IMG/VR virus record: IMGVR_UViG_3300037313_001751
Span: 1-64,000 of that record
Strand: one strand, 5' to 3'
Length of the DNA: 64,000 nt
Source: a virus
Lineage: Duplodnaviria; Heunggongvirae; Uroviricota; Caudoviricetes
The notes under the pieces: generated by a model
Databases searched by the model: none
What the model was told of the DNA's origin: nothing
The model's input: the letters and a program-made list of their open reading frames with translations, nothing else
Shown: positions 16,328 through 39,455 of the stretch, piece after piece
Layout: each line of letters begins with the position of its first letter
Numbering within the stretch: the first letter of the stretch is position 1
Position numbers and translations under genes: made by a program

Positions 16328-16372
16328 TAAAATACCTTTCTAAAATGGAGCGGCTCGAGGGATGCGAACTGC

Positions 16373-16600: not shown

Positions 16601-16653
16601 TTAAAGTCCTTAAAAACATGGTCCATAACCGACGGCTTGGCTCCAGGAAACGA

Positions 16654-16729: not shown

Positions 16730-16809
16730 ATAATGTTTGGTTCTGGAGGTTAGCCGCGCGCTAACTCTTCGCTTAATGCCACCCATCGGTCGTAGGGTGT
16801 CCATTTGTT

Positions 16810-16887: not shown

Positions 16888-16896
16888 AATTGCAGT

Positions 16897-17226
16897 TCAG
16901 TCTGGCCACCGTGTTTGGTTTATTGTTGCTATTCTAGATCGGGTTGCATCACGCCGGAGGCAGCCGCAGGACCGCGTATAACCCTGCCGCAAGTGATGTG
17001 AGCTAACCACCGTCGTCTGCCCGCAAGCGCATTCACAAGTCCAAGTCGTATAGCCACGCTTTGAACCTGCTCGCTCAGTTACCGATAAACGTCCAAATTG
17101 AATGCCACATAGGTTCAGCGGTCGCACAACTGAGGCCAGCCCTAATACCACCCCCAGTAATGACGGTGGTATGGAGGAGGAGCATATGGAGGTGGCACTA
17201 CAATGCATCCTGTGAGCAAGCCACAT
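16897..17226 (-). CDS. Cys-rich hypothetical protein (possible zinc binding)
   Basis: TCECACGQ...CGCLRR cysteine cluster. Confidence 0.4.
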   Translation of the reverse strand: MWLAHRMHCSATSICSSSIPPSLLGVVLGLASVVRPLNLCGIQFGRLSVTERAGSKRGYTTWTCECACGQTTVVSSHHLRQGYTRSCGCLRRDATRSRIATINQTRWPD

Positions 17227-17452
17227 ATGAGTGCCATCACCATAGCTTTAAACATTGACTGTTCCTTGTTGCCACGTTGATTCTTTAACTATCCTCGCTG
17301 CGGTATATAACAGTGCAGGCCGCATGTCACCTATCAGCATATCGCCTTCTGGTGGGTTCAAAATTTCATCGGCCAGCTGTATAAGGCAGTTTTCTATTTC
17401 TTCTTTTGTGATTGGATGTGTAGCGATATTACGCATAAAAACTCCGGTGAAC

Positions 17453-17965
17453 TTATAACTTTAATAACCTTTTTGCCAATAGGCTCCTTTCACGTGCTAA
17501 TTGCTTCCACGATGCAGGATGCTTGCCGTCGTCAATTCCATTTATCTGGTTGATGGCCTTTTCGAAAACATAAAGCGCTAGGTCACGCCACGTTTTGCTC
17601 CTACGCAATAGCGGACGCAACGCATCAAGCTTAAGGTTTTCGCGTTCTTGCTGGCTAAGACCAAGTGGCAACCATTTTGCTGGAATTGAACGGTCGCCAG
17701 CTTCAAATAAATGCACTGCCTTCTTGCTGAGAATCATCTCACCGAAACGGTACTGGTAGTCGGCCTTTTTGGCATTTTGCTGCCGCTTCTTTTCAGCATC
17801 CAGGGCCTTCTTTGTTTCCTCATCGCGTTTTAGGTTCTTGTCCAGAACAGCAATATTCAACAAGGTGTCTGCGTGTGGTAGGATGCCGCCATATGTTTTA
17901 GTGGGGTTTTGATATGAAAGCTTTCTAAATTTCGGCATAACCGTCCTCGTGTTAGAAGAGCACAT
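17453..17965 (-). CDS. hypothetical protein
   Basis: 170-aa ORF, basic. Confidence 0.45.
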   Translation of the reverse strand: MCSSNTRTVMPKFRKLSYQNPTKTYGGILPHADTLLNIAVLDKNLKRDEETKKALDAEKKRQQNAKKADYQYRFGEMILSKKAVHLFEAGDRSIPAKWLPLGLSQQERENLKLDALRPLLRRSKTWRDLALYVFEKAINQINGIDDGKHPASWKQLARERSLLAKRLLKL

Positions 17966-17976
17966 CGGAGATTTTT

Positions 17977-18435
17977 CTATACTGGATCCTCATTGTAATA
18001 TGCATCTATGCACGATTTGTCACTTAATCTGACATATTCGCCCGCTAATTTTAAGCACATACATTGACTTGGTTGCATTATTGCTTGAAGGTGCCTAACC
18101 TTGCGGTTTGTCAATGCGTGTGTCACGTCTACAGGGGCCACGGGGATATTTTGTTCATAGCAAAACTGACGCAATGCCATTGCAACAGCAGTTTCTACAG
18201 ATCGATTAGTAGAATGATGTCGGGCAGTATGGGTTTGGCTGGTGTAAACGTATTGACGCACACCAACCAAGTATAGGCCATTATCTTCTACAAAATAACC
18301 TCTCGGGTTTATTGGCTTTACAATCAACTCTAATCGAGACGTTGACTTAGACGCCATAGCGCAAACCATACCACCATCATATCGTTGAGTCACCTGAACC
18401 TCCGTTAAATATGCGCGGTTATTTAGGATCTGCAA
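17977..18435 (-). CDS. hypothetical protein
   Basis: 152-aa ORF. Confidence 0.45.
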   Translation of the reverse strand: MQILNNRAYLTEVQVTQRYDGGMVCAMASKSTSRLELIVKPINPRGYFVEDNGLYLVGVRQYVYTSQTHTARHHSTNRSVETAVAMALRQFCYEQNIPVAPVDVTHALTNRKVRHLQAIMQPSQCMCLKLAGEYVRLSDKSCIDAYYNEDPV

Positions 18436-18493
18436 ATCCTAAAAACTCAGCTTGGATCATTTTTCTGAGCTGTCCCGCAAAGTTATTTAAAGG

Positions 18494-19432
18494 TTGGATC
18501 ATTTTATCATGGCCTATATTGGAACCGAATATAACCGAGAGAATGCTCTCTCCGCGTTGAAAAAAGCGTCTGAATGGCATAGGCAGCAAAAACAAAAGAG
18601 GATAGATGCGTACAATAAGAAGCCGAACAGGTGCGCGCGTCAAGCATGCAGTGCAAGCCTGCCTTATGAAGGTAGGCACAAACAGTATTGCTCGCGACAG
18701 TGCAGTTGTTCAACTTTAAGCGGGCGGATCGCCAGGACCGACTCGCAGAAGGCTAAAGCTTTGTTAACCCGCAAAAGGCAACAGCTCGCTCGCCATGAAT
18801 ATATTGCAAGGAGTAACTGCCTTAGGCACTGCGCAGACAAAAGCTATTCGTTCACCATGGTTAAAGCGTGCGAATGCATTAAATGCGACAATGTCTTTTT
18901 TGTTAGGAACTGGCAAGAACGCCGAAAGCTGTTGTGTAATCAATGTTTTTCAAAGCTTGATAGAATTCCGTACAGTGGTATTAAGGTACCATTCGTAAAC
19001 CCTTATGATGGCGAATTGGTTACTTTCGATAGCTCATGGGAGCTAGCTGTTGCCAAAGCACTAATCGAGCGAAATATTAGGTGGACTAAACCGGAGCCGA
19101 TCAGTTGGGTCGATTCACTAGGCAAAGTGCGACGTTACGTAGCTGATTTCTATCTTCCTAATTATGACGTATTCTTGGATCCAAAGAATGATTGGGTAAT
19201 CAACCATCAAAAAGAGAAACTTGATACAGTCTCGCGACAAGTTACGCTAGTCTATGGCAGTGTCAAAAAAATACTGCAACATGTCGACAATATGGTCCGG
19301 GTGAGGAATTCTGCCGTCCTGACTTCAAGGTCCCAAACCTTGCACTCTACTTCTGAGTTACAACCGGGAAATTTGTGCGAAAATGGTCGGAGTGGGCAAG
19401 AATTGCACTTACCATCCCTCCCGGCTCGATAG
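18494..19432 (+). CDS. zinc-ribbon N-terminus plus restriction-endonuclease-like (PD-(D/E)xK, DUF559/Vsr-like) C-terminal domain protein
   Basis: N-terminal CARQACSAS...CSRQCSCS; C-terminal RYVADFYLPNYDVFLDPKND fits the D...(D/E)xK core of Vsr-like nucleases. Confidence 0.45.
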   Translation: MDHFIMAYIGTEYNRENALSALKKASEWHRQQKQKRIDAYNKKPNRCARQACSASLPYEGRHKQYCSRQCSCSTLSGRIARTDSQKAKALLTRKRQQLARHEYIARSNCLRHCADKSYSFTMVKACECIKCDNVFFVRNWQERRKLLCNQCFSKLDRIPYSGIKVPFVNPYDGELVTFDSSWELAVAKALIERNIRWTKPEPISWVDSLGKVRRYVADFYLPNYDVFLDPKNDWVINHQKEKLDTVSRQVTLVYGSVKKILQHVDNMVRVRNSAVLTSRSQTLHSTSELQPGNLCENGRSGQELHLPSLPAR

Positions 19433-26112: not shown

Positions 26113-26862
26113 TTAATCATGCCAGCCTGGTGGTGGCGTACACCCAGCGCCAAACGCTTGTGGCAATTCGGAAACAGTCGGATGTTGCCCTCCAATTTTT
26201 ATACCCCGTGCTGTGAGCCCTTTCCTGTCGTCGTAATAGACCAACAGTTCAGCAAGCTTATTGCCCCGCTTAAAGGCTACGTCATGTGTTGCAAATGCAG
26301 TTTTTTCTCCAAAACCAGTCCCCAGCGTGTTGACGCTTTGCGTCAGTGTAGTCGCGCTAGCAGTGGCAGATCTCGTTATAGAGTTCGTTGACCATAGAGG
26401 CGAATCGCAAATAGTCTGGGCCTGACCCATCATCGGATATAATTGTGTCGACGGTTGCAGGGATTGGTATGACATGATGGTTGTCTCAGCAAACACCATC
26501 AAGCCGAGCACGCCGGTGTTTTTTACACCGGCCGGTGATGCAAAGCTTGCATAGCTATGCTTTTTGTCTTGGAATGTGAATTTTGCCACTGCGGTGTTGT
26601 CCAGGGTCCAGCCAGGAATCCTAAGAGACCCCATGCTGCCAACAATATAGCCCTTACTTTCCCTTGTTGCTGGGGTGCCATCTAATGGACTTAGTCCATC
26701 AACACTTGGCACCACCAATACGCGGAAATAAGCGCTATTTGTAAATGTTAGTTCAAAGTTAGACTTGCGCCGACCTTCAACAAACGTGTTACCGTGGTGT
26801 TGGTATTCTTGGATCTTCCTGCCATTAACAAGAACATTGAACTCGAAATAGAGATGCTTCAT
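26113..26862 (-). CDS. hypothetical protein
   Basis: 249-aa ORF. Confidence 0.5.
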   Translation of the reverse strand: MKHLYFEFNVLVNGRKIQEYQHHGNTFVEGRRKSNFELTFTNSAYFRVLVVPSVDGLSPLDGTPATRESKGYIVGSMGSLRIPGWTLDNTAVAKFTFQDKKHSYASFASPAGVKNTGVLGLMVFAETTIMSYQSLQPSTQLYPMMGQAQTICDSPLWSTNSITRSATASATTLTQSVNTLGTGFGEKTAFATHDVAFKRGNKLAELLVYYDDRKGLTARGIKIGGQHPTVSELPQAFGAGCTPPPGWHD

Positions 26863-26922: not shown

Positions 26923-27216
26923 CTAAGATGGCTCAGAAATAGCCTTTAGCGGGTGTCCATAGTGACTAGCGACAGTTATCGTATCGTCAACCTTCTGTTC
27001 AGCTATTTCTTTCGTAAATACTCCTGCGATACCCCGTCCCTTTTCGTGCACCTCTAACGTCAACGCGCGCGCTTCTGATAGTGATTTATTGAATACATCA
27101 ACTAATACGTCAACTACAAAAGGCATTGGCGTAAAGTCATCATTAAGCAAGACAACCTTATACAGTTGTGGCCGCTTAAGAGTAACGTCTACTACGCTTT
27201 CAACATCGGTGCTCAT
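26923..27216 (-). CDS. clpS: ATP-dependent Clp protease adaptor ClpS
   Basis: 97 aa; YKVVLLNDDFTPMPFVVDVLVDVF...ARALTLEVHEKGRGIAGVFTKEIAEQK is the canonical ClpS core. Confidence 0.8.
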   Translation of the reverse strand: MSTDVESVVDVTLKRPQLYKVVLLNDDFTPMPFVVDVLVDVFNKSLSEARALTLEVHEKGRGIAGVFTKEIAEQKVDDTITVASHYGHPLKAISEPS

Positions 27217-27281
27217 TAGTTTGCCTATAATCCTAGGTGGTCAAACATGGAAAGGGTGGAGTTATACTCCACCCTTAATTA

Positions 27282-27719
27282 TCAATCGATGTTAACAGTG
27301 CGTGCTTTTAGCTCCTCAGGAATCTCATATTGAATGTAAACGCAGAGTAAGCCATCCTTATATTCTGCGTTCTTCACGTAAGTATTCTGCATAAGCCTAA
27401 ATTCTCGTCTGAAATCTCGTTCGGCTATTCCTTGGTGTAGGAAAACTCTATCATCATTCCTATTAAGTTTTGATCCGGAAACTGAAATTACTGGACCTTC
27501 AACTTGTATATTGAGTTCGTCTTTAGTGTAACCTGCTACTGCAAGCGTTAGCTTGTATGTGTCCTGTGACAGTTTTTCAATGTTGTATGGCGGAAACCCG
27601 GTAGTATCAAATGGTAGATTGAAAAAATTATCACTGCCAATAAAGTGCTTCTGAAGCCGAGACAGTGCTTCGGGCATTGTCAATGTCGCTAGTTGCATTA
27701 TCTTCCTCCATTTAAGCAA
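27282..27719 (-). CDS. small heat-shock protein (Hsp20 / IbpA-type alpha-crystallin domain)
   Basis: 145 aa; YNIEKLSQDTYKLTLAVAGYTKDELNIQVEGPVISVSG...GIAERDFRREFRL alpha-crystallin pattern. Confidence 0.8.
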   Translation of the reverse strand: MLKWRKIMQLATLTMPEALSRLQKHFIGSDNFFNLPFDTTGFPPYNIEKLSQDTYKLTLAVAGYTKDELNIQVEGPVISVSGSKLNRNDDRVFLHQGIAERDFRREFRLMQNTYVKNAEYKDGLLCVYIQYEIPEELKARTVNID

Positions 27720-27794
27720 GGATTAGGACCTTATATAAGCGTCCAGGTAGCCACCCTTGTGGCCGCGCATATTTATACCAGCGCAAGATTTGCA

Positions 27795-28535
27795 TTATGT
27801 GTTAGTATAATACAGGTAATCCGACATAGCCTGCTCATACTCAACGACACATGCCCGTGTATTACTGCTTATGTGCATGGCCTCAACCATTTCCTCAATG
27901 TTCAACCTGATTTCGGCAAATCTGTTTTCGTAGCCCGTATTGCCTATCATTCTAAATTCGAAATATGGATTTGCCGGAGCAGTATGGAAGCTTATCGCCC
28001 GGTACTTAGAATCAGGACTCATTTGCAGTCGCATTTGCAGGACCTTTGCCGCTTGTTTCCACGACGTTATGTGTTGTCGCTTAGTATGGCGTGTCCATTT
28101 TTTAAAATCACTATCATAGCTCTTGCAAAAGATATTTCTTTGGCGCTTGTATTGGGCGAGAAACTCGTTACACGGCGTGAAGACTATGAGCTTTACTGGA
28201 TCCACGTTTTTATTGCGCTGTATATCGATGAAGCTAAGGTTCACATGTAAGCCAGTTGTTCTGTTAGTGCGATGTCTCCTCTCTCCAATCCAACTTAGGA
28301 CTTCAGCTAGCCGCTGTAATCCATGCTTGTATGGAAGGCATGGTGTTACCAATTCGTGGCCAAAACAAAGGCGCGCCGGTTTGATCGAGCTATCAAACGC
28401 CATACGCCACCTTTCGTTCAACTTGCCGCCAAATGGCACGTTGAATGTTTTCTCTAGGTCTTCAATGATGTCTCTAGCTGTTGTGGCCGCAAAAAATTCA
28501 AACTCGAATCCAATCTGCGTTTTGTATGATTTCAT
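27795..28535 (-). CDS. hypothetical protein, possibly amidoligase (GS-like, PF12224-type) family
   Basis: 246 aa; N-terminal QIGFEFEFF resembles the amidoligase_2 opening motif; otherwise unassigned. Confidence 0.45.
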   Translation of the reverse strand: MKSYKTQIGFEFEFFAATTARDIIEDLEKTFNVPFGGKLNERWRMAFDSSIKPARLCFGHELVTPCLPYKHGLQRLAEVLSWIGERRHRTNRTTGLHVNLSFIDIQRNKNVDPVKLIVFTPCNEFLAQYKRQRNIFCKSYDSDFKKWTRHTKRQHITSWKQAAKVLQMRLQMSPDSKYRAISFHTAPANPYFEFRMIGNTGYENRFAEIRLNIEEMVEAMHISSNTRACVVEYEQAMSDYLYYTNT

Positions 28536-28595
28536 ATAACACTCCAGCTCAATGCAGGAGTAAAGTAACCACTAGGCGCTTGTCATTATTCACTC

Positions 28596-28622
28596 AAAAA
28601 AATGGGAGGTTTCCCTCCCATA
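28596..28622 (-). terminator. rho-independent terminator downstream of the S21-like gene
   Basis: Minus strand: GGGAGGGAAACCTCCC hairpin followed by TTTTTTT. Confidence 0.6.
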
Positions 28623-28859
28623 TTACCATTCCTCGGAAGCTGCAGCAGCTTTGCGCACGCGCCGTTCACCCTCCTTCTTACGCTTCCGTGCAATTTGACC
28701 TTTGCTTTCGTAATATTCTTTGCGGCGCATGTCCCTGATTATCCCTTCCTGGACCATACGTCTTTTTAAGGTTTTAATTGCCGCATCGAATGCTTTGTTC
28801 CGTGCATCGATTTTCTCGGACGGATCTACATGGTAGATCTGTTTGATATCGACTGTCAT
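28623..28859 (-). CDS. rpsU: ribosomal protein S21-like
   Basis: From internal Met MTVDIKQIY...FDAAIKTLKRRMVQEGIIRDMRRKEYYESKGQIARKRKKEGERR aligns with bacterial S21 (FD.A...FKR....G.L.E.RRRE.YEKP...RKR.K); ORF-track start 28907 is probably too far upstream. Confidence 0.7.
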   Translation of the reverse strand: MTVDIKQIYHVDPSEKIDARNKAFDAAIKTLKRRMVQEGIIRDMRRKEYYESKGQIARKRKKEGERRVRKAAAASEEW

Positions 28860-28924
28860 ACCTCTTTTATGCAGGTCGCGGCCGCAACCTGGGAAATGTT
28901 TGCGCATCCTAAAATAATCTTACC

Positions 28925-29440
28925 TTATACAGTGGTTGGTTTTAATGGTGCGACTATAGTTATCATATCGCGGCCATTCAATGTGATCGGTTTCTCTATT
29001 TTGTGTTCCCTAAGGTTTCCAAGAAAGTTTTCAAGCACAATACGTCCTCTATCGGCATAGTTCAGTTCACGACCTTTAAATTTTACAATGACTTTGACCT
29101 TATCACCATCAGTTAAGAAACCTTGTGCCTTTTTTGCTTTTAGTTCTACATCCCGTGTATCGGTAACCGGTCGCAGCTGGATTTCCTTGACATCCACCTG
29201 TGCTGCCCGTGACTTCTTTGCTATTTCCTTTTCACGTTTCTCTAGATCATAGCGAAACTTACCGTAGTTTAGTATTTTAGCAATTGGTGGAGACGCGTCT
29301 CTGATTATCACAAGGTCAAGATTTTGTTGTCTTGCTTGGTATAGTGCGTCACGCGTTGCGACAATCCTATTCTCGTCATCATCAACAAGTCTAACTTCCC
29401 GTGCTGTAATATATTCGTTAACCGAATGGTCTATTGTCAC
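28925..29440 (-). CDS. infC: translation initiation factor IF-3
   Basis: EVRLVDDDENRIVATRDALYQARQQNLDLVIIRDASPPIAKILNYGKFRY...VKEIQLRP...KVKVIVKFKGRE matches IF-3 N and C domains throughout. Confidence 0.9.
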   Translation of the reverse strand: MTIDHSVNEYITAREVRLVDDDENRIVATRDALYQARQQNLDLVIIRDASPPIAKILNYGKFRYDLEKREKEIAKKSRAAQVDVKEIQLRPVTDTRDVELKAKKAQGFLTDGDKVKVIVKFKGRELNYADRGRIVLENFLGNLREHKIEKPITLNGRDMITIVAPLKPTTV

Positions 29441-29455
29441 AAATCAACTCCAAAT

Positions 29456-30700
29456 TCAACCTGTCTTTAATAGTTCCTTATATTCCTTAATAAGGATGGG
29501 GTTCTCTAAGCCATTTATCACATCTTTGCTAATGCGAACTTTTACAACGCCTTCGTCGCGTAGTTCGGCTAAAGTGAATTGAATTGGTAATAAACGCTTC
29601 TCAAGCACACCGCGCAAACCCCGCGCACCGGTCTTACGCTCGATTGCTCGTTTGGCGACTTGGCGCAGCGCGTCGGCATCAAATTCGAGCTCGATTTTTT
29701 CTAATTGGAAAAGTTTTGCAAATTGCTTAATTAGTGCGTTCTTCGGCTCCTGGAGGACTTGGACTAGCTGGTCTTCGGTCAATTCATCAAGATGAACTAT
29801 AATCGGCAGGCGCCCAACTAATTCAGGAATAAGGCCGTATTTGACCAAATCTTCCGGTTCGACTTGAGGAAGATAATTGTTTTGCTTCTCCTCACTTACT
29901 GCCTCAAGCCGTGAGCCATATCCAATCTTATTTTTATTCTTATTGAGTCTCTCACCGATTATTTCATTTAAGCCAACAAATGCGCCTCCAACGATAAAAA
30001 GGATATTCTTCGTGTTAACAATGATGGTTTCAGCCTGTGGATGTTTGCGGTTGCCTTGCATTGGCACACGGACCTCAGTGCCTTCGATGATTTTGAGGAG
30101 CGCCTGCTGAACGCCTTCTCCAGACACGTCCCGAGTGATTGACACGTTATCGCCTCGTTTGGCTTTCTTCTCTATTTCATCGATAAAAATAATCCCTCGC
30201 TCAGCTTTCGACACATCGCCATCGGCAACTTGCACCAACCTGGTAATGATTGTTTCGACGTCATCGCCAACATAGCCGGCTTCGGTAAGAGAGGTTGCGT
30301 CAGCAATAGTGAATGGAACATCTAATAGTTTTGCTATACTTTGTGCAATCAGCGTTTTTCCAGATCCCGAAGGGCCGAGTAATACCAGATTAGACTTTTC
30401 TAGCTCCACATCGTCAATAATAGGAAATTCGAGCCGCTTGTAATGGTTGTTAATTGCAACACTCATCACCATCTTGGCTTCTTCCTGGCCAATAACATAG
30501 TCGTCCAGGAATTTCATAATTTGCTTGCAAGTTGGAACCTTGTTTTTCTTCTGTGTTACGGCACCTTCTTTAAGAATCTCTGAGCACACCTTAATGCAAT
30601 CGTCGCAAATATATACGTCAGGGCCAGCGATCAATTTTTTGACCTGCGTTTGCTGCTTAGCGCAGAACGAACAGCTCAGAGTCTTTTTTGATTCGGTCAT
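29456..30700 (-). CDS. clpX: ATP-dependent Clp protease ATPase subunit ClpX
   Basis: N-terminal zinc-binding CSFCAKQ...CDDC; Walker [11 protein letters not shown]; Walker [10 protein letters not shown]; GYVGDDVE pore loop; sensor and C-terminal ClpX regions. Confidence 0.9.
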
Positions 30701-30708
30701 TAGATATC

Positions 30709-31332
30709 CTATGACATTGGATAGTAAGTAGAACCACTAGCATCCGCCACAAAATTTACCGTGATTTTGGACTCAGCGGCTGCAATATCATCCGCAAGCG
30801 GTCCAGCATTTACTGCAATCAAACTCTCCCCATAATGATAATTCGGATCTGAGAAGGCGGTCGGGTCGATAACTGGATAATTGTCTACATTTACGTTTGC
30901 CACCAATGCGCGTGCGATCCACCGCTTTATGGCATCATCATTATAAAGCATTTCTCCTGGATTCAGTTCGTCATATGCATATAGATAGTCTGGGCGGTCA
31001 TATACAACTGTAAAATCCATTGTAGTTGCTTGCGCTGAGGCTGTCGCTCCTGTTGCAGAGACATTCTTTATTGCGAAAGGCGTCACCGTGCTTGCCAGTT
31101 GGCTAACAATTGAGTTCCACCGGATGTTGCCACGGGCTCTCGCTGCTGCGTTCGCTGCGTTGGTCGGCCATCCGCTTGACATATCATATGTGCCGCCTGA
31201 ACCTGGAGTTATATAGCTATTAGCCGGCAGATTGTCTATAAAGCCATCACCTGGTGCACTTGCTGTAACGCCAGCTATGCTGACAGTGTAAAACAAAAGA
31301 TCTTGCGACATACAGCCACCTTTCAAACACAA
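30709..31332 (-). CDS. hypothetical protein
   Basis: 207-aa ORF, Ala/Asn-rich. Confidence 0.5.
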   Translation of the reverse strand: MCLKGGCMSQDLLFYTVSIAGVTASAPGDGFIDNLPANSYITPGSGGTYDMSSGWPTNAANAAARARGNIRWNSIVSQLASTVTPFAIKNVSATGATASAQATTMDFTVVYDRPDYLYAYDELNPGEMLYNDDAIKRWIARALVANVNVDNYPVIDPTAFSDPNYHYGESLIAVNAGPLADDIAAAESKITVNFVADASGSTYYPMS

Positions 31333-31425
31333 ATATTATCAATATATTTAGTTAGCAAAGAGTTAGATTGCCAAATTTCTCCCAACGTCATAATTAACGA
31401 GTATCAGTTTTGAAATAGGAATAAG

Positions 31426-33345
31426 ATGACTACGCTCACAAAAGACGACCTTACAGACAATATTCATCAATTGGCCTATCGTGACCATGCACGGCTCAAG
31501 ACCGAAATGTACTTGGGATCACGCAGCCTGCATACCCAATCGATCCTTTGCTTGCCAGATTCTGACAGCTTGTTTATCAATATCAACGAGTCCTTTAACG
31601 CTACTGGAATGCAATTAGAGGAGATTAGTTGGGTTCAGGCCTTGGCTACTTACGTGCGTGAGATCATTGATAATGGTCTTGATGAATTTGCACACGGTTA
31701 TGGATCACGACTCGACGTTACCTACAACGCTGCAACTTGCGAAATTACCGTGAAGGATGACGGGCGAGGCATACCGATTGATCATGCAGTCGCAGCTTTA
31801 ACCCAACCTATGACTGGCCGTAATTTTGGAGAAAGAAAGGAGATTGTTGGCACAAATGGATATGGCGCATCAGCTGTTTCGAACACATCGGAATATTTCG
31901 ATTTCACAGTGTGTCAAACTGGCAAGAAACTAGAATGTTCGATTCGAGAAGGCGAGCCGAAAATAGGCGGCAAACTCGAGATCTCTGAACCTCAAGTGAC
32001 TAGCTATAGAGGCAGCCACACCGGCACGATGATTTCCTTCAAGCCCAGCAAACATGTATTTAGACATTTGACATTGCCGGACAGGTTTTTGAAAACCCGG
32101 ATGTTTGAGATTGCAGTGTGCAACCCACATTACAAAATTTATTACAATGGAGAATTGTTAAAAATTAAATCACGGATAGAAAGCTCTCTCTTTCCTAACC
32201 GAAAAACGATCCGCATAGAAGTAGTTAATTCGCCGATGAAATTTAAGAGCATCTTTTTCCTCGTGCCTAAATTTGTCGAATCAGGCGATCACTATCATAC
32301 GCTTGTTAACAACATATTCGCCCATAATGGCGGCATCCACATTGACACATTTAAGCGTGTTTTTCCAGGGTCTTTACTACGAGCATTAGAGAGGGAGTCC
32401 AAAAGGCGCAAACTGGTGCCAAACCGTTCTGATATCAGCGAAGGATTGCTTGTCTACAACATAACCACTATGCAACAGCCTGATTTTGATAGCCAGTCGA
32501 AATCACGGCTCATCAATGAGGACGCTGGCGACATCATACGTCGGTTTTTCGAAAATGACGATTTCATCAAATCCTTTATAAAGGAGAATGCCGAATGGAT
32601 TGACGAGATCTATCAACGCTGCGCAGACCGGACGCAAAGGCGTGATGCAAGTGAGCTATCGAAATTAAGCAAGAAGGTTCTTCGCAACAAAGTGCCTGGA
32701 TTGATGGATGCCACAGCTTCCCGCCGAAATGATTGCATCCTTTTCCTTGCAGAAGGTGATTCGGCCATTGGCGGCATGGCAAGTGTGCGGAATCCCGAAA
32801 TTCATGGCGGCCTTGCGTTGCGCGGCAAAATCATGAATGTAAATGGTGAAAACCCGAAGAAAGTTTTGGATAATAAATGCCTCACCGAGATTATGAATTC
32901 GATTGGCCTTGTGATTGGCCAGGAGGCTAAGCGTCATAATTTAAGATATGGCAAGGTGTACCTTGCAACCGATATGGACCATGACGGCTTCAATATTGCT
33001 GCGTTGTTGATAAACTTTTTCTACACATATTGGCCTGAATTGTTTAACCCTGAACAACCACCATTTGTCTACGTATTTCAAACGCCGTTCGTTATCGCAG
33101 AAAAAGGCCGGCACAGAAAATACTGGTACGCGCATGATTACAACGGTTTCGATCCTAAGGATTATGTTGGCTGGTCAATCACTCGGGCAAAAGGCTTGGG
33201 AACCCTCAGCGAATTAGATTGGGAACATTCGATGCATAATCCGATTTTGATGCCGATAGTTGAAGACGGTAATTTGCATGATTCTTTGGATCTGATCTTT
33301 TCGCCAAAGAAGGCCGATGCAAGGAAACAGTGGATTGGACTCTAA
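31426..33345 (+). CDS. type II DNA topoisomerase, ATPase + Toprim subunit (T4 gp39/gp60-like, GyrB/ParE-related)
   Basis: GHKL ATPase motifs (EIIDNGLDE, VKDDGRGIP, GTNGYGAS); Toprim ILFLAEGDSA...; DMDHDGFNI acidic motif. Confidence 0.85.
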   Translation: MTTLTKDDLTDNIHQLAYRDHARLKTEMYLGSRSLHTQSILCLPDSDSLFININESFNATGMQLEEISWVQALATYVREIIDNGLDEFAHGYGSRLDVTYNAATCEITVKDDGRGIPIDHAVAALTQPMTGRNFGERKEIVGTNGYGASAVSNTSEYFDFTVCQTGKKLECSIREGEPKIGGKLEISEPQVTSYRGSHTGTMISFKPSKHVFRHLTLPDRFLKTRMFEIAVCNPHYKIYYNGELLKIKSRIESSLFPNRKTIRIEVVNSPMKFKSIFFLVPKFVESGDHYHTLVNNIFAHNGGIHIDTFKRVFPGSLLRALERESKRRKLVPNRSDISEGLLVYNITTMQQPDFDSQSKSRLINEDAGDIIRRFFENDDFIKSFIKENAEWIDEIYQRCADRTQRRDASELSKLSKKVLRNKVPGLMDATASRRNDCILFLAEGDSAIGGMASVRNPEIHGGLALRGKIMNVNGENPKKVLDNKCLTEIMNSIGLVIGQEAKRHNLRYGKVYLATDMDHDGFNIAALLINFFYTYWPELFNPEQPPFVYVFQTPFVIAEKGRHRKYWYAHDYNGFDPKDYVGWSITRAKGLGTLSELDWEHSMHNPILMPIVEDGNLHDSLDLIFSPKKADARKQWIGL

Positions 33346-34711
33346 CACAATGACTTGGACAAGTATGCAACCGAGCGATTATATCCTAACAACCTCACAT
33401 GGATTTTCCGTCTACGCGTGTGAATCGCGTGCCATTCCGAAAGTAACTGATGGACTAAAAGATTCGCAGCGCAAAATGCTATGGATAATGAGGAACAAGT
33501 CCGACAAACTTAAAACAATATCTTTAGCAGGAGAGTGCATCAGTAGTAACCTATACCTTCATGGCGACCAGTCGGCATCTGACACAATTTCGATGATGGC
33601 AGCACCGTTTTGCAATAATGTTCCCTTGTTCGACGGTATCGGATCATTCGGGACGAGGACTGCGCCCACCGGCTGGGGCGCAGCACGTTATACATACGTT
33701 AAGCGCGGCAAAGCTGCTCAGCACCTCGTATACCCGGACCTTGACATTATTCCGTTAAAGGAAAATTATGATGGCTCAGCAATGGAGCCGATACATTTCT
33801 TGCCGATCATCCCGTTGGTGCTTCTAAACGGAATATCGGGGATAGCCGTTGGCTATTCAACGGACATCTTATCCCGGTCACTACAAGACCTAATTGATGC
33901 CTGCATAAGCGTCCTTGACAACAAAGTTCCAGCAAGCCTACGCCCTGCCTATACCTACCTCAATTGCTCTGTTGCTCCAATTGGCCTAAACGTATGGGAA
34001 TTTTCGGGCAAAGTAGCGATAATTGATACGTCAACAATCCGTGTTTATGAACTGCCTCCTGAACTAACACTTGAAAAATTCAAAGAGCGGCTGAATGAAT
34101 TCGAGGATAAAGGTCACATCAATAGCTATACCGACCGCTCAACTAAAGCAATCGATATAACAATCAAATTTCCTCGTGGTTCAATTAGGGATTGGACGGA
34201 TGAACAAGCTGTTGATTTCCTCAAACTAAAGCAGAAAAAAACTGAGCGAATAGTTGTTATTGATTGGAGTAATGATAGGATTCGACAATATCCATCAGCT
34301 GAACAACTTGTTGCTGATTTTGTCAACTGGCGGCTTAAATGGTACACGACACGATACGAAAGTAAGCTTAAAAGCGCTTCTTATGAACTCCAGTTTTGGC
34401 GGGGAATCAAGCTCTGCTTTGAGAAGGATATGCCGTCCCGTTTGCTGGCGCGCATTAACAAAAAAGAAGTTGAAGCTGACGTGTTCGACTTGACGAAATC
34501 ATTGGCCCTGGATGAAAAGCAGGTTGAACGGATTGCTGCGTTACCAACGTATCGCTGGTCACGAGAGGGTTTGGAGTTGGCCGAAGTAACTATTGATGAA
34601 CTCCAGCGCAACACTGCTGAATACAACTTGATTTTGTCTGACGAAAAGGCCATTAGGTCCATCTACAAGAAGGAACTAATGGCCCTTAAAAAGGTAAAGC
34701 TAGCTACCTAG
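33317..34711 (+). CDS. type II DNA topoisomerase, DNA breakage-reunion subunit (T4 gp52-like, GyrA-N-related)
   Basis: ESRAIPKVTDGLKDSQRKMLWIM (GyrA RALPDVRDGLKPVHRR pattern); active-site region GAARYTYVK; overlaps upstream subunit by 29 nt. Confidence 0.85.
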   Translation: MQGNSGLDSNTMTWTSMQPSDYILTTSHGFSVYACESRAIPKVTDGLKDSQRKMLWIMRNKSDKLKTISLAGECISSNLYLHGDQSASDTISMMAAPFCNNVPLFDGIGSFGTRTAPTGWGAARYTYVKRGKAAQHLVYPDLDIIPLKENYDGSAMEPIHFLPIIPLVLLNGISGIAVGYSTDILSRSLQDLIDACISVLDNKVPASLRPAYTYLNCSVAPIGLNVWEFSGKVAIIDTSTIRVYELPPELTLEKFKERLNEFEDKGHINSYTDRSTKAIDITIKFPRGSIRDWTDEQAVDFLKLKQKKTERIVVIDWSNDRIRQYPSAEQLVADFVNWRLKWYTTRYESKLKSASYELQFWRGIKLCFEKDMPSRLLARINKKEVEADVFDLTKSLALDEKQVERIAALPTYRWSREGLELAEVTIDELQRNTAEYNLILSDEKAIRSIYKKELMALKKVKLAT

Positions 34712-36410
34712 TTGCAAACACGCAGAATGATGCGCCATTCTGATGATGCGGTTCGTCCAAAAATACATCGGTACTGAACCCCTCATCAGATAGGATGTTG
34801 AGGATATCTTCCTTCCTCAACCATTTGCTGCCCTCTGCAGAGCCGCCGCAAAATCCAGCCCATTCCAGGGCATGCAGGTACTGTTGACCATACATGGCAA
34901 CTGTTCTACCATGTCTTGTAGTTACTTGTTCAGGCGAAAAATTAAACTTATTCCGTTGCTCGTGCTGCTCCATTACAGCGGGATCGAAATAGTGGGTCCA
35001 CAACCCTATAGCGCGCGCAACCCTACACATATTTTGCAGGACAGACACGGGATCCGTCATATGGTACAACACCCCAGACGCTAGCAGGAAATCATAATGG
35101 CTGGTGGGGTTTTCGAGATATTTGGTGAAGTCGCCGAGCAAAAATGTTGCCCCGTCGAGTTTTAGATGATTCTTTACGACCAAACAGCGTTGCCAGGCTC
35201 TCACATTTGACTCGATGCCAAGCACGCGTGCGCCACGTTGTGTCATCATATATGTGTGCCCAGCCTCAAGTGGGCCTAGTTCTAACACATGTTTGCCAAC
35301 AAAGCCACCAAGCCGCTTCTCGAAACCAATAATCCTTTGGTCATTGAAAAGTTCAGCATAGCCGGTATCAGCTAGTCCTGGAACCTTAGAACTCCACTCG
35401 CCTTCAAAGACACGAACTGCATTTTGTGGCGCTGGCTTCCAATCAACATATCTGGGAATTGCCGGTGCTTTTTCAATTTGTGGCTTCGGTAATGTCACTG
35501 GCTCGTCGAGAACATGTTGTTCAATATCGAGGAGAGTCGGCTCACCGGCGAGAAGCCAGTCTATTTGTGCCTTCTGCTCTAACAGCGTGCGTTTTAAAAG
35601 ACGCATTCGCCTTCTATTGAACTGGTCGTCCGAATAAGCTTGTGCAATGCGCTTTCCTCCTCGCCTAAGCCACACGTAGAATTCACAACCAGTTGCATCA
35701 GTGGACCGATCAACCCTCAGGTCGATTTTTCCGAGGCGCGATAGCTCTAACACTATAAGTTCGAACGATGCCGGTGTGAAATGCCATGCATGTAAGTCGT
35801 GATATTGATCGTCATTTGCATAAAGGGCGAGTTTTTCTGCTGCTTCGCCAAAAGTATGGATGAAATTAAGTGATTGTGTTGGCCATTGACCCCACGTAAT
35901 GCTGCCTCCGCTTGCTACAGCGTATCCATAATGCTGGAAAGCTGCACTTGGGTTGTGGCGCGACGACCCCTCAGCCCTAAGCACATCGCCAGTAGTGGTA
36001 ATAGGTTGGAATGCATCGAAGATATAGCGTTTATCGGGAACAGCAAGGATTACGGTGCCATCTTCTTTTAGCAACTGACCAGCACTGTTAAAAAACCCGA
36101 TCAAATCGGTTACATGTTCAATGACATGACTGGCGATAAAAGCATCAAACTGTCCATGCAGCTCTACCGGCACTACGTCGCATATCGCACCCTGTTGCCA
36201 AACGTAATCAACATCCTCGATGTTCGAAACATCAACATTCGCGTGGCCGGCATATTTTTCGATGAGTCCATTCCGATCTGTGTGATCAACAACCTTCGTA
36301 TTCCAGCCGTCGCGTTTTGGAGCGATCGGACTTGTGCTTGGGCCGATTTCGAGGAGCAGCGCCGCGTCGCGATGTAAACGTGACAGCAATGTATCTGCGC
36401 GTGATGACAT
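34704..36410 (-). CDS. tandem class I SAM-dependent methyltransferase-domain protein
   Basis: 568 aa; two Rossmann MTase-like regions (…AFIASHVIEHVTD…DGTVILAVPD and …VLELGPLEAGHTYMM…DFLLASGVLYHMTDPVS). Confidence 0.65.
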   Translation of the reverse strand: MSSRADTLLSRLHRDAALLLEIGPSTSPIAPKRDGWNTKVVDHTDRNGLIEKYAGHANVDVSNIEDVDYVWQQGAICDVVPVELHGQFDAFIASHVIEHVTDLIGFFNSAGQLLKEDGTVILAVPDKRYIFDAFQPITTTGDVLRAEGSSRHNPSAAFQHYGYAVASGGSITWGQWPTQSLNFIHTFGEAAEKLALYANDDQYHDLHAWHFTPASFELIVLELSRLGKIDLRVDRSTDATGCEFYVWLRRGGKRIAQAYSDDQFNRRRMRLLKRTLLEQKAQIDWLLAGEPTLLDIEQHVLDEPVTLPKPQIEKAPAIPRYVDWKPAPQNAVRVFEGEWSSKVPGLADTGYAELFNDQRIIGFEKRLGGFVGKHVLELGPLEAGHTYMMTQRGARVLGIESNVRAWQRCLVVKNHLKLDGATFLLGDFTKYLENPTSHYDFLLASGVLYHMTDPVSVLQNMCRVARAIGLWTHYFDPAVMEQHEQRNKFNFSPEQVTTRHGRTVAMYGQQYLHALEWAGFCGGSAEGSKWLRKEDILNILSDEGFSTDVFLDEPHHQNGASFCVFATR

Positions 36411-36413
36411 CCC

Positions 36414-39400
36414 TTACAATCCCTCCCAGGGCTTCGTGCGGCGTGTTGGCGTTGCTAGTTTGAACGTATGATCGACGTAGTCGAAATTTGGATTATAGAA
36501 TGGATCCATATCTAACTGGCGACCCCATTTTTGCCGCATATACGCCTGGGACCTACGATAGCGATGTATCTTATCGGGGTCTTCATCCGATCCTCGGCTC
36601 GCTGACTCGTAGTGGAACAATTCAGCAAAGGGCGTCCATACAACTTTTAGTCCGTGTTCTCGCACACGCAAACAAAAATCGACATCGTTATATGACACGG
36701 GTAAATTGTCAGCATCAAGCCCTCCCAGTTCAAGGTACAGTTCTTTTGTTACAGCAAGACATGCGCCGGTCACAGCACTAACCTCGCGTGTCAGTGCATA
36801 CTGCCCTACGTAACCACCGCTATTTTCATCATCATAGTGTCCAAAATGTCCTGCAACACCATCGGTGCCGACTCCAACAACAACGCCAGCATGTTGAATC
36901 CGACCATCGCCGTATAGCAGTTTTGCGCCGACAACACCCACATCTGGCCTAGATACGATCGACACCATCTCGCGCAACCAGTTTCGATCTTTGACCTTTG
37001 TGTCATTGTTAAGCAAGACTAAAATATCGCCACTGCTTTCCTTAGCTCCGAAATTGTTGATCGCCGAATAATTGAAAGGTCCGGGGTAAGAGACCACCCG
37101 GATATTGGACGTCTTAGAATATTGCTCAAGTAGGAATAGCGCACTCTCCTCCTTGCTGCCATTGTCGACAATAACCACCTCAAAATTATCATAATCAGTA
37201 TCTAGGACACCACCAATACACTGCGACAGCAAGCTAGCCCTGTCCCGTGTCGGTATAATAATTGAAACTTTTGGCGTTGGCACTGGCAGTGGCCAAATAA
37301 CACGGCTCCATTCAGCAGCCAACTTCGCCGGCGCAACTTTTGCACCTTTGATATGTTTACTGTGTAGGTAGTCGGCAATTGCTCGCCGCGCAGCGGCAAC
37401 ACACTGGTCCAGTTGCGACTGAGAAAACGAGCCCTTTTCGGGGTCGAGACGCCAGTGATACAGCACGGCTGGAATATGATAAATTTTGTCCGTTTTCGCG
37501 GCACACCTCAGCGTGAGATCATAATCCTGGCTGCCGTCAACAATGCCTTCCCTGAAGCCGCCGACTGATTCGACCAACGACCGCCTATAAACACCTAGGT
37601 GGCTGAACATATTGTGGCCGAACATAAGGTCAATGTTGAAATCTGGCTTGAAATACGGCTGGAGGCGTCTCTTGTCCGGCCCCATCCGATCTTCGTCGCT
37701 GTAGATCATATCGAGGCTTTTGTTATCATTAAGCGCCACTACAACTTCATACATTGCGGTCTCTGCTAAGAAATCATCATGGTCCATCAGCAGGATGAAC
37801 TCACCCTTTGCTAATTTTATCGCAGAGTTACTCGCAGCGGCTATATGGCCGTTTGTGGAACGCCATGTAACTTTGATCCGCTTATTTTTCGATGCCTCCC
37901 TCCGAATAGCTCTCCGTGTCTCTTTGTTGGTTGATGCGTCGTCAGCGATGCACAATTCCCAGTTGTCATATAGCTGTGCTTCGATACTTGCGATCGCGTC
38001 CCTGAGATAGCTTGGCTTTGTATTGTATGTTGGCATAACCACGGAAATTAGTGGCTTGTATTGCAGTTTGGCGATGTGGCTCCTTATTAGCTCGCGATCT
38101 CGTGAAGTCAGCGTATCGTTGTGCCGCACCCAATTATCGTAATCTGTCGGCTCAAAACCACCCCGTGCCGGCTCTTTCCTTCTGTCGCCTATTAGTGACG
38201 TCAGCCGGCGTCGCACATTCACTGGAACATATGATCCTAACACTCGCACCGGCGCAGTAGCCCGCCACATTGTTGAGTTCTTCAACATGTCGCGTTCAGC
38301 CTGCACACTGCTAAGCTGCGCCTGCATAGCGTGCAGGTGGTTCCGCAATGCGTTGATCTCTTCGACATCGGTCACAACTTGAACCGGTGACTGCGCCTGG
38401 GGCGCGGCAAGTCTCAGAGCCTCAGACAGCGCAGCAGACAGCCTCGCTTTCTCAGCGTTTGCGACGGATGCGATGGAGGTCAGACGACCAATTTCATTTC
38501 GCAAAGTGTCTGTCTCATCGACATGTTTGTTTGTAGCAGCCTCTAGTTGCTGAATACGGCCGACGCTTTTCTGAAAGCTTATTCGCTGTTCGTCTAGCTG
38601 GTTCGATAAGAGCGCAATCTGCGTTTCCATTTGTTCTGATTGTGCTTGCGCAGTCGTCATTTTTGCAGTAAGCGCGTCGATTTCTTGCAGTCGTGTAGCA
38701 TCGGCGACATTGTGATCAGCTACTACCTTAGCTAATTCTGCGTGTTTATCACTTAACTCTTGCTGCTTTTGATTGAGCTGCACTTGTAGGCCTGCTAACT
38801 GACTACGCAGGGACGAAAGGTTTAACCGCTGGCGAATTAATTCGACAAACCCATGCAGCAAATCGCGGGTTACCGGCCCCTTTTGCAACAGGAAAGCGTG
38901 TGGCGCTATAAACGATGCATCAAACGTTGTTACGGGTGCAAACCCAACGTCTGCAAATTTGTTAAGCCACCAAATTGTTGGCTTAACATTTATGTGGGTC
39001 GGTTCTATGATGTCGATTGGTGAAGATGAAAACAGCACGCGTGGTGCCGCATCGGCCATATTGTAAATTGCCTGTAGCGCCTCTTCTTCGCTCATATGTT
39101 CAAGCACCTCGATGCAGACGATCAAATCGAAGATGCCATTAAATCGATCTGTTAAACTCCCTTGTTCCACAAACGGCCGTACATCTGGCCTTACCTGGGA
39201 CACAGCAAAATTGGAAATATCCCTTCCATACGCTTCAATACCCCGATCCCATAATGCCTCCACCAAAAACCCATGTGCACAGCCAGCGTCAAATACTGTT
39301 TTCGGTGCGAGACTGCGCACAATCTCATCGGCTATGCCGCCAAAAAACAACCCCCATTCGGGCTCTTCGCGAGCATAGGGTTTTTGCCCGCAATGCGTCC

Positions 39401-39455
39401 GATAATAATCAGCGTTATAAGTCTCGTCCACGTCGTATCCAGTTTGTTCGTCCAT
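36414..39455 (-). CDS. multidomain glycosyltransferase: N-terminal SAM-MTase + coiled-coil + two family-2 glycosyltransferase (GT-A) domains
   Basis: 1013 aa; MTase motif I VFDAGCAHGFLVEAL; GT2 #1 ISVVMPTYNTKPSYLRDAIASIEAQLYDNWELCIADDAS; GT2 #2 VSIIIPTRDRASLLSQCIGGVLDTDYDNFEVVIVDNGS; DxD-type acidic motifs present. Confidence 0.8.
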   Translation of the reverse strand: MDEQTGYDVDETYNADYYRTHCGQKPYAREEPEWGLFFGGIADEIVRSLAPKTVFDAGCAHGFLVEALWDRGIEAYGRDISNFAVSQVRPDVRPFVEQGSLTDRFNGIFDLIVCIEVLEHMSEEEALQAIYNMADAAPRVLFSSSPIDIIEPTHINVKPTIWWLNKFADVGFAPVTTFDASFIAPHAFLLQKGPVTRDLLHGFVELIRQRLNLSSLRSQLAGLQVQLNQKQQELSDKHAELAKVVADHNVADATRLQEIDALTAKMTTAQAQSEQMETQIALLSNQLDEQRISFQKSVGRIQQLEAATNKHVDETDTLRNEIGRLTSIASVANAEKARLSAALSEALRLAAPQAQSPVQVVTDVEEINALRNHLHAMQAQLSSVQAERDMLKNSTMWRATAPVRVLGSYVPVNVRRRLTSLIGDRRKEPARGGFEPTDYDNWVRHNDTLTSRDRELIRSHIAKLQYKPLISVVMPTYNTKPSYLRDAIASIEAQLYDNWELCIADDASTNKETRRAIRREASKNKRIKVTWRSTNGHIAAASNSAIKLAKGEFILLMDHDDFLAETAMYEVVVALNDNKSLDMIYSDEDRMGPDKRRLQPYFKPDFNIDLMFGHNMFSHLGVYRRSLVESVGGFREGIVDGSQDYDLTLRCAAKTDKIYHIPAVLYHWRLDPEKGSFSQSQLDQCVAAARRAIADYLHSKHIKGAKVAPAKLAAEWSRVIWPLPVPTPKVSIIIPTRDRASLLSQCIGGVLDTDYDNFEVVIVDNGSKEESALFLLEQYSKTSNIRVVSYPGPFNYSAINNFGAKESSGDILVLLNNDTKVKDRNWLREMVSIVSRPDVGVVGAKLLYGDGRIQHAGVVVGVGTDGVAGHFGHYDDENSGGYVGQYALTREVSAVTGACLAVTKELYLELGGLDADNLPVSYNDVDFCLRVREHGLKVVWTPFAELFHYESASRGSDEDPDKIHRYRRSQAYMRQKWGRQLDMDPFYNPNFDYVDHTFKLATPTRRTKPWEGL

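Follow-up and report, generated by a model that had tools for sequence, protein, structure and literature searches.

The locus described here raises the question of whether a run of cell-like genes in an uncultured virus is a set of recent acquisitions or a resident part of a phage genome, and of what its products would do during infection. The DNA analysed, hereafter called the window, comprises the 64,000 nucleotides (nt) at positions 1 to 64,000 of the IMG/VR virus record IMGVR_UViG_3300037313_001751 (Caudoviricetes), and the locus is a block of six minus-strand genes at 26923-30700 that encode ClpX, translation initiation factor IF-3, ribosomal protein bS21 (S21), an Amidoligase_2 protein, the small heat-shock protein Hsp20 and ClpS. 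It is likely that this block has been passed on vertically as one gene neighbourhood within a clade of jumbo phages with genomes of about 430-640 kb, to which Agrobacterium phage Atu_ph07 and the Sinorhizobium phages Phosso and AP-J-162 belong, and that its proteins are working copies, the latter because the residues needed for normal biochemistry are kept in all five cell-like proteins. Gene identities, motif conservation, clade-wide synteny and the separation from bacterial homologues were computed directly.

Gene content of the block

Searches with hidden Markov models confirmed the six cell-like genes at the coordinates and on the strand given for them by the initial annotation, whose text correctly lists six genes and whose title miscounts them as five. 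In the direction of transcription the block runs from clpX (29456-30700; NF003745, 578 bits against a cut-off of 359, and TIGR00382, 545 against 371) through infC, encoding IF-3 (28925-29440; TIGR00168, 151 bits against 60), rpsU, encoding bS21 (28623-28907; PF01165, 5e-10, 39.3 bits against 27, and TIGR00030, 43.8 against 28.95), the amidoligase gene (27795-28535; PF12224, 8.6e-13, 49.2 bits against 22) and hsp20 (open reading frame (ORF) 27282-27719, likely gene 27282-27698; PF00011, 1.3e-14, 54.6 bits against 20.8) to clpS (26923-27216; PF02617, 1.5e-28, 98.9 bits against 23). All six family assignments thus exceed the curated cut-offs at family level, and since all six proteins also match PHROG families, each of these genes taken singly was already known in phages. 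The initial annotation had further stated that clpP, rpsA and other initiation factors are absent from the window, which held for ClpP and IF-1, as tblastn over the 64 kb returned neither of them, nor L7/L12, L35 or L20; Pfam scans of about 40 of the larger ORFs in the window revealed no other translation or proteostasis gene, and for rpsA no dedicated query was used.

Conservation of the block in a clade of jumbo phages

A megablast comparison of 50,697 phage records with the 8 kb that surround the block gave no match at the DNA level, and the relatives of this virus are therefore visible at the protein level only. In IMG/VR, exact-word patterns made from ClpX alone, which were too strict, confirmed no relative. 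For ClpX, IF-3 and both topoisomerase subunits encoded next to the block, the top two matches in the phage collection are Phosso (469 kb; ClpX 60% and IF-3 48% identical) and Atu_ph07 (490 kb; ClpX 57% and IF-3 47-49% identical). In a tblastn map, the part of the window between 26 and 64 kb is collinear with a segment of Atu_ph07 that starts at 484.6 kb, passes over the origin of that record and ends at 55 kb; the first 26 kb of the window, where tRNAs and host-like accessory genes abound, correspond to nothing in the part of Atu_ph07 with which they were compared (430-484 kb). Collinearity and nearest-neighbour hallmark proteins place the window in the Atu_ph07-like clade (Polybotosvirus and relatives), and membership of the genus Polybotosvirus is not claimed, given protein identities of 35-60%. 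As a whole, the phage genome is probably 450-500 kb long, and the window covers about one seventh of a clade genome.

Gene order was compared in seven clade genomes, namely Atu_ph07, Phosso, the contig of GCA_015689235.1 and the relatives L004, L005, L006 and L089, and all share the arrangement topoisomerase II | ... clpX-infC ... rpsU ... hsp20-clpS, with the limits that hsp20 is not recognisable in two of them (one being L089) and that hsp20 and clpS of Phosso lie outside the stretch compared. The clpX and infC genes are adjacent, 15-65 nt apart, in each of the seven phage genomes and in none of 80 bacterial clpX loci, and the gene order is kept in relatives down to about 45-50% IF-3 identity. 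In L005 (IF-3 55% identical), L006 (IF-3 50%) and L089 (ClpX 67%) the order topoB | ... clpX-infC ... rpsU ... hsp20-clpS extends over about 11 kb, with several unrelated ORFs between clpX and topoB. In Atu_ph07 the order, read across the origin, is ClpS, thymidine kinase, Hsp20, two ORFs, S21, one plus-strand ORF, IF-3, ClpX and a hypothetical gene, followed by the topoisomerase II large subunit and the topoisomerase IV-A-like subunit. In the contig carrying P0003, the nearest of the longer relatives (IF-3 74%, ClpX 80%), the order is ClpX-IF-3-ORF-S21-Amidoligase-ORF-ClpS in about 4.3 kb, and the block in the window, at 3.8 kb, is the most compact version seen. The lists of IF-3 and ClpX homologues have at least 25 contig sizes of 10 kb or more in common, many of them of 430-640 kb, which indicates that a sizeable clade of huge phages carries both genes. 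One relative (P0047, P0152) lies on a contig of 958,096 bp, and an identical ClpX is found on the 480,938-bp L089, about half that size; the larger contig therefore probably arose by concatemeric assembly and does not represent a phage of nearly one megabase.

Phage or bacterial origin of the block

The proposal of the initial annotation that the block belongs to a huge phage is supported by about 12 scattered tRNAs, many small ORFs and a split phage-type topoisomerase II in the window, in addition to the collinearity with Atu_ph07. What had been set beforehand as the test for a bacterial origin gave the opposite outcome, as neither infC-rpmI-rplT nor clpP-clpX synteny is present and both ClpX and IF-3 fall apart from the bacterial sequences. 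It was found that clpP stands directly upstream of clpX in 74 of 80 bacterial loci and in none of the phage loci tested, and that infC in the window is followed by rpsU, with no L35 or L20 detected by tblastn. Among GTDB species genomes, the bacterial ClpX closest to that of the window (58% identical) comes from Halomonadaceae, and identities of 51-58% are spread over Gammaproteobacteria, Bacillota, Actinomycetota, Planctomycetota and one alphaproteobacterial metagenome-assembled genome (MAG). In a neighbour-joining (NJ) tree the ClpX proteins of the window, Phosso and Atu_ph07 together with 115 metagenomic sequences (118 in all) are split from 80 bacterial sequences in 200/200 bootstraps, the distance between the two groups (0.645) being larger than the spread among bacterial phyla (0.397). 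Likewise, 123 phage-type IF-3 sequences are split from three bacterial ones, 38-40% identical, in 199/200 bootstraps. Because the ClpX and IF-3 trees separate the phage proteins from bacteria and bacterial synteny is lacking, the genes of the block can be regarded, on sequence grounds, as old, long-resident phage genes and not as recent host captures.

It should be mentioned that some short records labelled as Escherichia, Staphylococcus, Listeria and Enterococcus phages (among them OR845177.1, OR849975.1 and PQ520234.1) contain ClpX and ClpP that resemble host chromosomal copies, the ClpP of OR845177.1 being 100% identical to that of E. coli. The Clp genes in records of this type look like host contamination and are not to be counted as phage-encoded.

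Initiation factor IF-3 and ribosomal protein bS21

The IF-3 of the window has both the IF3_N (PF05198, 3e-21) and the IF3_C (PF00707, 6e-25) domains and aligns end to end with the IF-3 proteins of Geobacillus, E. coli and Thermus (three solved structures). Bacterial infC genes typically have a non-canonical AUU start that mediates autoregulation, and a check for a non-AUG start had been recommended in the initial annotation. Such a start was indeed found, the codon being GUG and not the autoregulatory AUU: infC of the window begins with GTG, preceded by GGAG at a distance of 7 nt, and a TGA in the same frame, two codons before the GTG, rules out an AUU start further upstream. GTG is also the start in Phosso, Atu_ph07, L005 and L006, and TTG, as called, in L089, which makes the start non-AUG, and never AUU, in 6/6 genomes checked, each with a good Shine-Dalgarno sequence. 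Since GUG is a canonical start codon against which IF-3 does not discriminate, AUU-based autoregulation of infC is probably not retained.

The bS21 protein comprises 94 residues, and its core, which begins at about residue 29, was placed at 29-86 by PDB alignments with bS21 chains of ribosome structures; it thus falls outside the bacterial bS21 size criterion (about 55-71 residues, no N-terminal extension). The motif ...GRD-x-[HN]-K-[KR]-G-[LM]-[TA]-V... of the extension is kept in the window, Phosso, Atu_ph07, L005, L006 and L089, and because the extension is conserved in these six clade genomes the first ATG is taken as the true rpsU start. M17 was considered as an alternative start and was ruled out, as the residues upstream of it are conserved and M17 itself aligns with Leu in the relatives. 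One gene of Atu_ph07 annotated as a hypothetical protein (MF403008.1 489096-489347; L003 11097-11348) is a bS21 homologue, 37.5% identical to that of the window, with a matching N-terminal extension and TATAAATA 40 nt upstream. N-terminal extensions have been reported for S21 of huge phages, for which it has also been proposed that IF3 and S21 redirect or intercept host translation initiation (Al-Shayeb et al. 2020, PMC7162821), and the statement that S21 and IF-3 are recognised translation genes of huge phages is in agreement with that work. It has been shown that a pelagiphage bS21 expressed in E. coli enters 70S ribosomes (Mizuno et al. 2019, PMC6375957).

ClpX, ClpS and their partners

The clpX product, an AAA+ unfoldase, aligns over its full length with E. 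coli ClpX (8e91) and keeps the Cys4 zinc finger, Walker A and B, the GYVG pore-1 loop, the RKH loop and the sensor-II/Arg finger, with the motifs IGY, GRLP and GARGLR. GYVG is present in 118/118 phage-type ClpX sequences. The ClpP-docking loop of the window protein is IGY, a conservative F-to-Y variant of IGF, and among the 118 sequences the tripeptide is always [IMLVFY]-G-[FY] (IGF 88, MGF 21, LGF 3, IGY 2, VGF 2, FGF 1, YGF 1), which argues for selection on the ability of the phage ClpX to dock onto a ClpP ring. Substrate recognition by ClpX involves the RKH loop; this loop is RKN in 24 of the 118 phage-type sequences and RKH in 80/80 bacterial ones, and the specificity of ClpX may therefore be altered in part of the clade.

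ClpS is the N-degron adaptor of ClpA/ClpC and not of ClpX. The same role at ClpA was stated for the ClpS of Atu_ph07 (Attai 2018, PMC6102473), and the description of the two window proteins as a ClpX with its ClpS adaptor mis-paired them. The best PDB match of the window ClpS is Caulobacter ClpS (3dnj), and the N-degron pocket is kept, with LNDDFTPM and the pocket His (VH) aligning with 3dnj and with E. coli ClpS; the residues that presumably contact ClpA, as in ClpS-ClpA structures (E..E.K in 'eiaeqkv'), align as well. As the protein scores below the NCBIfam equivalog cut-offs (98 bits against 149, 95 against 112), it is a family member and not a close equivalog of any bacterial subgroup. No ClpA-like gene adjoins clpS in the window.

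The initial annotation had also concluded from the missing ClpP that host ClpP would be redirected, a conclusion that is not supported, since the relatives encode their own ClpP and the window is only 64 kb of a genome of about 450-500 kb. Atu_ph07 encodes ClpX, ClpA, ClpB, ClpP, ClpS and DnaJ (PMC6102473). Both Atu_ph07 and Phosso have a genuine ClpP, about 64% identical to that of E. coli and 78% to each other, with the Ser-His-Asp triad intact and encoded far from clpX; no ClpP gene was found within +-10 kb of the relatives' loci. Given this distance and the probable genome size, the absence of ClpP from the window is uninformative.

Hsp20 and the amidoligase

Translation of hsp20 likely begins at the ATG at 27698, which GGAGG precedes at a distance of 7 nt and which gives a protein of 138 residues, and an independent gene call in L004 yielded the same 138-residue Hsp20. 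The protein matches IbpA/IbpB models at 1e-27 to 1e-28 and phrog_432 at 3.5e-32, remains below the IbpA equivalog cut-off (99 bits against 212), and ends in ...TVNID, in which V-N-I fits the I/V-x-I/V motif.

Members of the Amidoligase_2 family, which has 1,139 representative clusters, are reportedly carboxylate-amine ligases resembling glutamine synthetase (GS; Iyer et al. 2009). No PDB sequence match was obtained for the window protein; its AlphaFold2 model has a pLDDT of 95.2, and in Foldseek searches of the PDB it came closest to the folds of glutamine synthetase, YbdK and glutamate-cysteine ligase, with probabilities of up to 1.0 and TMq values of 0.42-0.47. Across 48 sequences the amidoligase residues E11, E13, E61, R131, E193 and R195 are invariant. 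From the model and these residues it is best read as a stand-alone ATP-dependent carboxylate-amine ligase with a GS fold. The gene occurs in the window and in its relatives at 66-80% identity, a word-based homologue search returned two matches only, and sensitive tblastn found no homologue in the blocks of Atu_ph07, Phosso, L005 and L006, a distribution that marks it as a presumed insertion specific to the sublineage of the window. An unrelated ligase, from the glutathionylspermidine-synthase family, is encoded in Phosso between its infC and rpsU genes, and the presence of ligases at the block in both phages may be a coincidence.

Proposed transcription units and RNA signals

Directly upstream of clpX lies hyp207 (30709-31311, minus strand), a gene of no Pfam or PHROG match whose likely start is the ATG at 31311 behind AAAGGTGG; a homologue, 40% identical, stands between topoB and clpX in L005. 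The gaps hyp207-clpX, clpX-infC and infC-rpsU are of 8, 15 and 17 nt, and hyp207-clpX-infC-rpsU is a probable single transcription unit, divergent from the topoisomerase II genes. The intergenic region between them (31312-31425), presumed to be the promoter region of this unit, contains weak sigma-70-like matches only, so its promoter function is inferred, and because the sigma-70 scan (15 matches) did not exceed the shuffle expectation (11.2 +- 3.1) no early promoter is claimed. At 28595-28621 on the minus strand, beginning 2 nt past the rpsU stop, there is an intrinsic terminator with an 8-bp stem, five G-C pairs and U7 (folding energy -14.5 kcal/mol, z = -3.3). The terminator noted in the initial annotation is hence real, but it closes the probable four-gene operon and is not one of rpsU alone.

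After this terminator, the amidoligase gene, hsp20 and clpS are proposed to form separate or partly read-through units. A motif resembling T4 late promoters, TATAAATA (27770-27777, minus strand), lies 79 nt upstream of hsp20, and the same motif occurs 66 nt (L005) and 61 nt (L006) upstream of hsp20 in these relatives, from which we infer a late-type promoter. The window has five copies of TATAAATA (20337, 27770, 55839, 58794 and 59847), all intergenic and on the minus (coding) strand, and the motif also lies upstream of Atu_ph07 rpsU and Phosso clpX, which suggests that the clade uses T4-type late promoters. Right after the hsp20 stop there is a strong hairpin (27252-27276, minus strand; -18 kcal/mol, z = -4.7, 0/200 shuffles folding as well), which has a weak U tract and failed the T-run rule of the terminator scan; it is a possible attenuator or RNA-stabilising element. 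An Rfam scan of the block found no structured RNA.

Proposed function and alternative explanations

The expression timing, ribosome loading and choice of Clp partners proposed here are deduced from the features above. Both IF-3 and bS21, the latter with its N-terminal extension, would bind to the 30S subunits of the host and sustain initiation or bias it towards the mRNAs of the phage, which are strongly Shine-Dalgarno-led. The phage ClpX, with its ClpP-docking loop kept, would most likely work as ClpXP, its partner probably being a ClpP encoded elsewhere in the phage genome, as in Atu_ph07 and Phosso, or otherwise that of the host, and ClpS would deliver N-degron substrates to an unfoldase of the ClpA type rather than to ClpX. 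Late in infection, proteins prone to aggregation would be held by Hsp20.

Several points weigh against the view of an inherited block of working copies. The trees are NJ trees only, the bacterial ClpX sample is limited by the search pattern and includes one alphaproteobacterial MAG, and the outgroup of the IF-3 tree consists of three bacterial sequences. Neither ClpP nor ClpA was detected in the window or in about 5.7 kb past its right end (L091), the stretch covered when the search for clpP was extended, as had been advised, beyond the window; in addition, a ClpP-profile scan of Joint Genome Institute (JGI) metagenomes gave no sequence from the window's own sample, Ga0395901, among the best 80 matches. 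Phage bS21 has had a single functional test, in which ribosomes with the protein were almost inactive in vitro, at about 5% of wild type (PMC6375957), and S21 as a working copy is for this reason not proven. Finally, the enrichment of TATAAATA across the window is borderline, with five found against 2.1 expected and 4/100 shuffles reaching five.

If the genes were instead recent, independent captures from the current host ('moron' genes), or if the window were a misassigned fragment of a bacterial chromosome, one might point to the 38-59% identity of the block proteins to bacterial homologues and to the alphaproteobacterial (Caulobacter) origin of the best structural match of ClpS. Such an explanation is extremely improbable and already largely refuted, as the phage clade is monophyletic for both ClpX and IF-3 at the bootstrap values given above, the order is kept in distant relatives and collinear with a cultured phage, bacterial synteny is missing, and no bacterial ClpX exceeds 59% identity as against 57-100% for members of the clade. 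It is also distinctly unlikely that, as the initial annotation would have it, phage ClpX and ClpS operate without a phage ClpP and hijack that of the host for new substrates, with ClpS as adaptor of ClpX. This would agree with the lack of ClpP in the stretches searched and with a conserved docking loop, from which docking to some ClpP is expected, and it has been proposed that jumbo-phage ClpS serves as adaptor to host ClpAP (Iyer et al. 2021, PMC7824862). Against this, ClpS adapts ClpA/ClpC, the two closest complete relatives encode a genuine ClpP far from clpX, Atu_ph07 has ClpA as well, and the window is only about one seventh of a clade genome.

Other explanations concern the purpose of the proteins. 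Host ClpXP acts on lambda O, and ClpX of this clade might mainly control DNA replication by remodelling or degrading replication proteins, with IF-3 and S21 as unrelated neighbours. This possibility, which we consider rather unlikely and which would not exclude the inherited, working block favoured here, was suggested by the authors of the Atu_ph07 and AP-J-162 studies from topoisomerase adjacency (PMC6102473, PMC11242549), and clpX indeed lies divergently beside topoisomerase II in all clade members examined; however, adjacency is the sole evidence for it, clpX is linked more tightly and more consistently to infC than to any other gene, and in L005, L006 and L089 unrelated ORFs part clpX from topoB. 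An unlikely role in virion morphogenesis has to be considered too, in which the Clp and Hsp20 proteins would be assembly chaperones or translocases for a very large capsid rather than agents of host takeover. The late-type TATAAATA upstream of hsp20 in three genomes would suit it, and virion-assembly or translocase roles were proposed for jumbo-phage ClpA and ClpX (Iyer et al., PMC7824862), but clpX is in a unit with infC and rpsU beside replication genes and not structural genes, and the conserved ClpP-docking loop argues for proteolysis over pure chaperoning. A more specific idea, very much a long shot, is that the clpX-infC(-rpsU) linkage reflects functional coupling, in which ClpX(P) would clear host initiation or ribosome-associated factors for the phage IF-3 and bS21 and the amidoligase inserted in this sublineage might, much as RimK or the Pup ligase do, tag or otherwise modify a target that is ribosomal or bound for degradation. 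It is prompted by the linkage of clpX and infC throughout the clade and never at bacterial clpX, and by the clade-wide non-AUG start of infC.

Genomic setting of the block

Divergent from the block there is the conserved flank of split phage-type topoisomerase II genes (31426-34711, plus strand), consisting of a large subunit (31426-33345; Pfam DNA_gyraseB/Toprim/HATPase_c) and a topoisomerase IV-A-like subunit (33317-34711; Pfam DNA_topoisoIV), both 51-57% identical to the Atu_ph07 and Phosso copies at the equivalent relative position. On the other side, downstream of clpS, lies the conserved neighbour hyp249 (26113-26862, minus strand), for which no Pfam or PHROG match was found; it is 34-35% identical to AUZ95445 of Atu_ph07, located downstream of Atu_ph07 clpS with one ORF between them, and a 255-residue ORF occupies its position in the contig carrying P0003. 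Pfam scans also revealed a VapE-like protein and a DnaB-type helicase. The gene of this replicative helicase continues from window 62935-64000 past the right end (L091 4956-6833), and a faint Intein_splicing match adjoining DnaB_C suggests that the helicase appears to carry an intein.

Beyond the topoisomerase genes, two large minus-strand genes (34704-39455) encode a 568-residue protein with two methyltransferase domains and a 1013-residue protein with a methyltransferase and two GT2 glycosyltransferase domains, which may modify surface polysaccharide or DNA/virion components. A histidine kinase with a PAS domain is encoded at 44717-45841, and Atu_ph07 has a nearby annotation as a 'multi-sensor signal transduction histidine' kinase (36599-38209). 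At the other end of the window, tRNA genes lie at 174-19367, all on the minus strand; ARAGORN and Rfam report 10 each in lists that differ, giving about 12 in total, with 10651-10723 and 19296-19367 found by Rfam only and a long 'tRNA-Asn' (6356-6444, 89 nt) and a tRNA-His (14374-14449) by ARAGORN only. Interspersed with them on the minus strand (1-17000) are host-like accessory genes for an MgtC-family protein (1845-2312; 4e-30), an SPFH/Band-7 protein (4173-4997), and an ATP-binding cassette (ABC)-transporter permease (6445-7170; BPD_transp_1, 1.5e-22) with an adjoining weak NMT1-like substrate-binding protein (7164-8114), transporter components being unusual in phages.

Comparison with known systems

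The window adds a new uncultured and fairly divergent Atu_ph07-like jumbo phage, with a ClpX 57-60% identical to those of cultured relatives and no DNA-level match, and it indicates that the translation and proteostasis genes of this clade have long been inherited together as one neighbourhood and were not picked up recently at scattered places. The block in matching order is already described in cultured relatives, of which the window is a new example. Every component, and the adjacency of clpX, IF-3 and topoisomerase, is already in the literature, and the current understanding is unchanged. In this regard, Attai et al. (2018) listed the Clp genes of Atu_ph07 with clpX beside the topoisomerases (PMC6102473), Iyer et al. 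(2021) cited its ClpX, IF3, Hsp20 and ClpA proteins (PMC7824862), and in the Sinorhizobium phage AP-J-162 clpX stands directly beside IF-3 and topoisomerase, with S21, Hsp20 and L7/L12 also encoded (PMC11242549). Added here are the clade-wide conservation of gene order, the clpX-infC pair as its tightest and a clade-specific linkage, the architecture of operon and terminator, the non-AUG, non-AUU start of infC, the late-type motif upstream of hsp20 and the amidoligase that seems specific to one sublineage. The terminated clpX-infC-rpsU unit, the GUG/UUG start of infC and the extension of S21 offer handles for work on phage takeover of translation in the cultivable Atu_ph07 and Phosso.

Compared with the bacterial clpP-clpX(-lon), clpS-clpA and infC-rpmI-rplT operons, the window encodes homologous proteins with conserved catalytic and binding motifs, but clpX is uncoupled from clpP, clpS is not followed by clpA, and infC is not followed by rpmI/rplT. 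Phosso (PV764938), whose ClpX is the closest cultured match at 60%, resembles the window in that infC directly follows clpX beside the topoisomerase genes and S21 is encoded downstream in the same direction; it differs in that infC and S21 are about 7 kb apart, many ORFs being inserted between them, with an HNH endonuclease, a tRNA and the ligase mentioned above among the insertions. The closest parallel in layout is Atu_ph07 (Polybotosvirus; MF403008; gp1-gp2 and about gp706-gp713), which has matching block genes in the same order and orientation within 38 kb of collinear surroundings and, like the window, a GTG start of infC and an N-terminal extension of S21. It differs in a protein identity of 35-57%, in a block of about 6 kb against 3.8 kb, in a thymidine kinase gene that separates hsp20 from clpS, in further ORFs that separate S21 from hsp20, and in having no Amidoligase_2 there. 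In the broader surveys of such genes (Al-Shayeb 2020, PMC7162821; Mizuno 2019, PMC6375957) they are treated singly across clades, whereas in the window they form one compact and conserved unit together with clpX.

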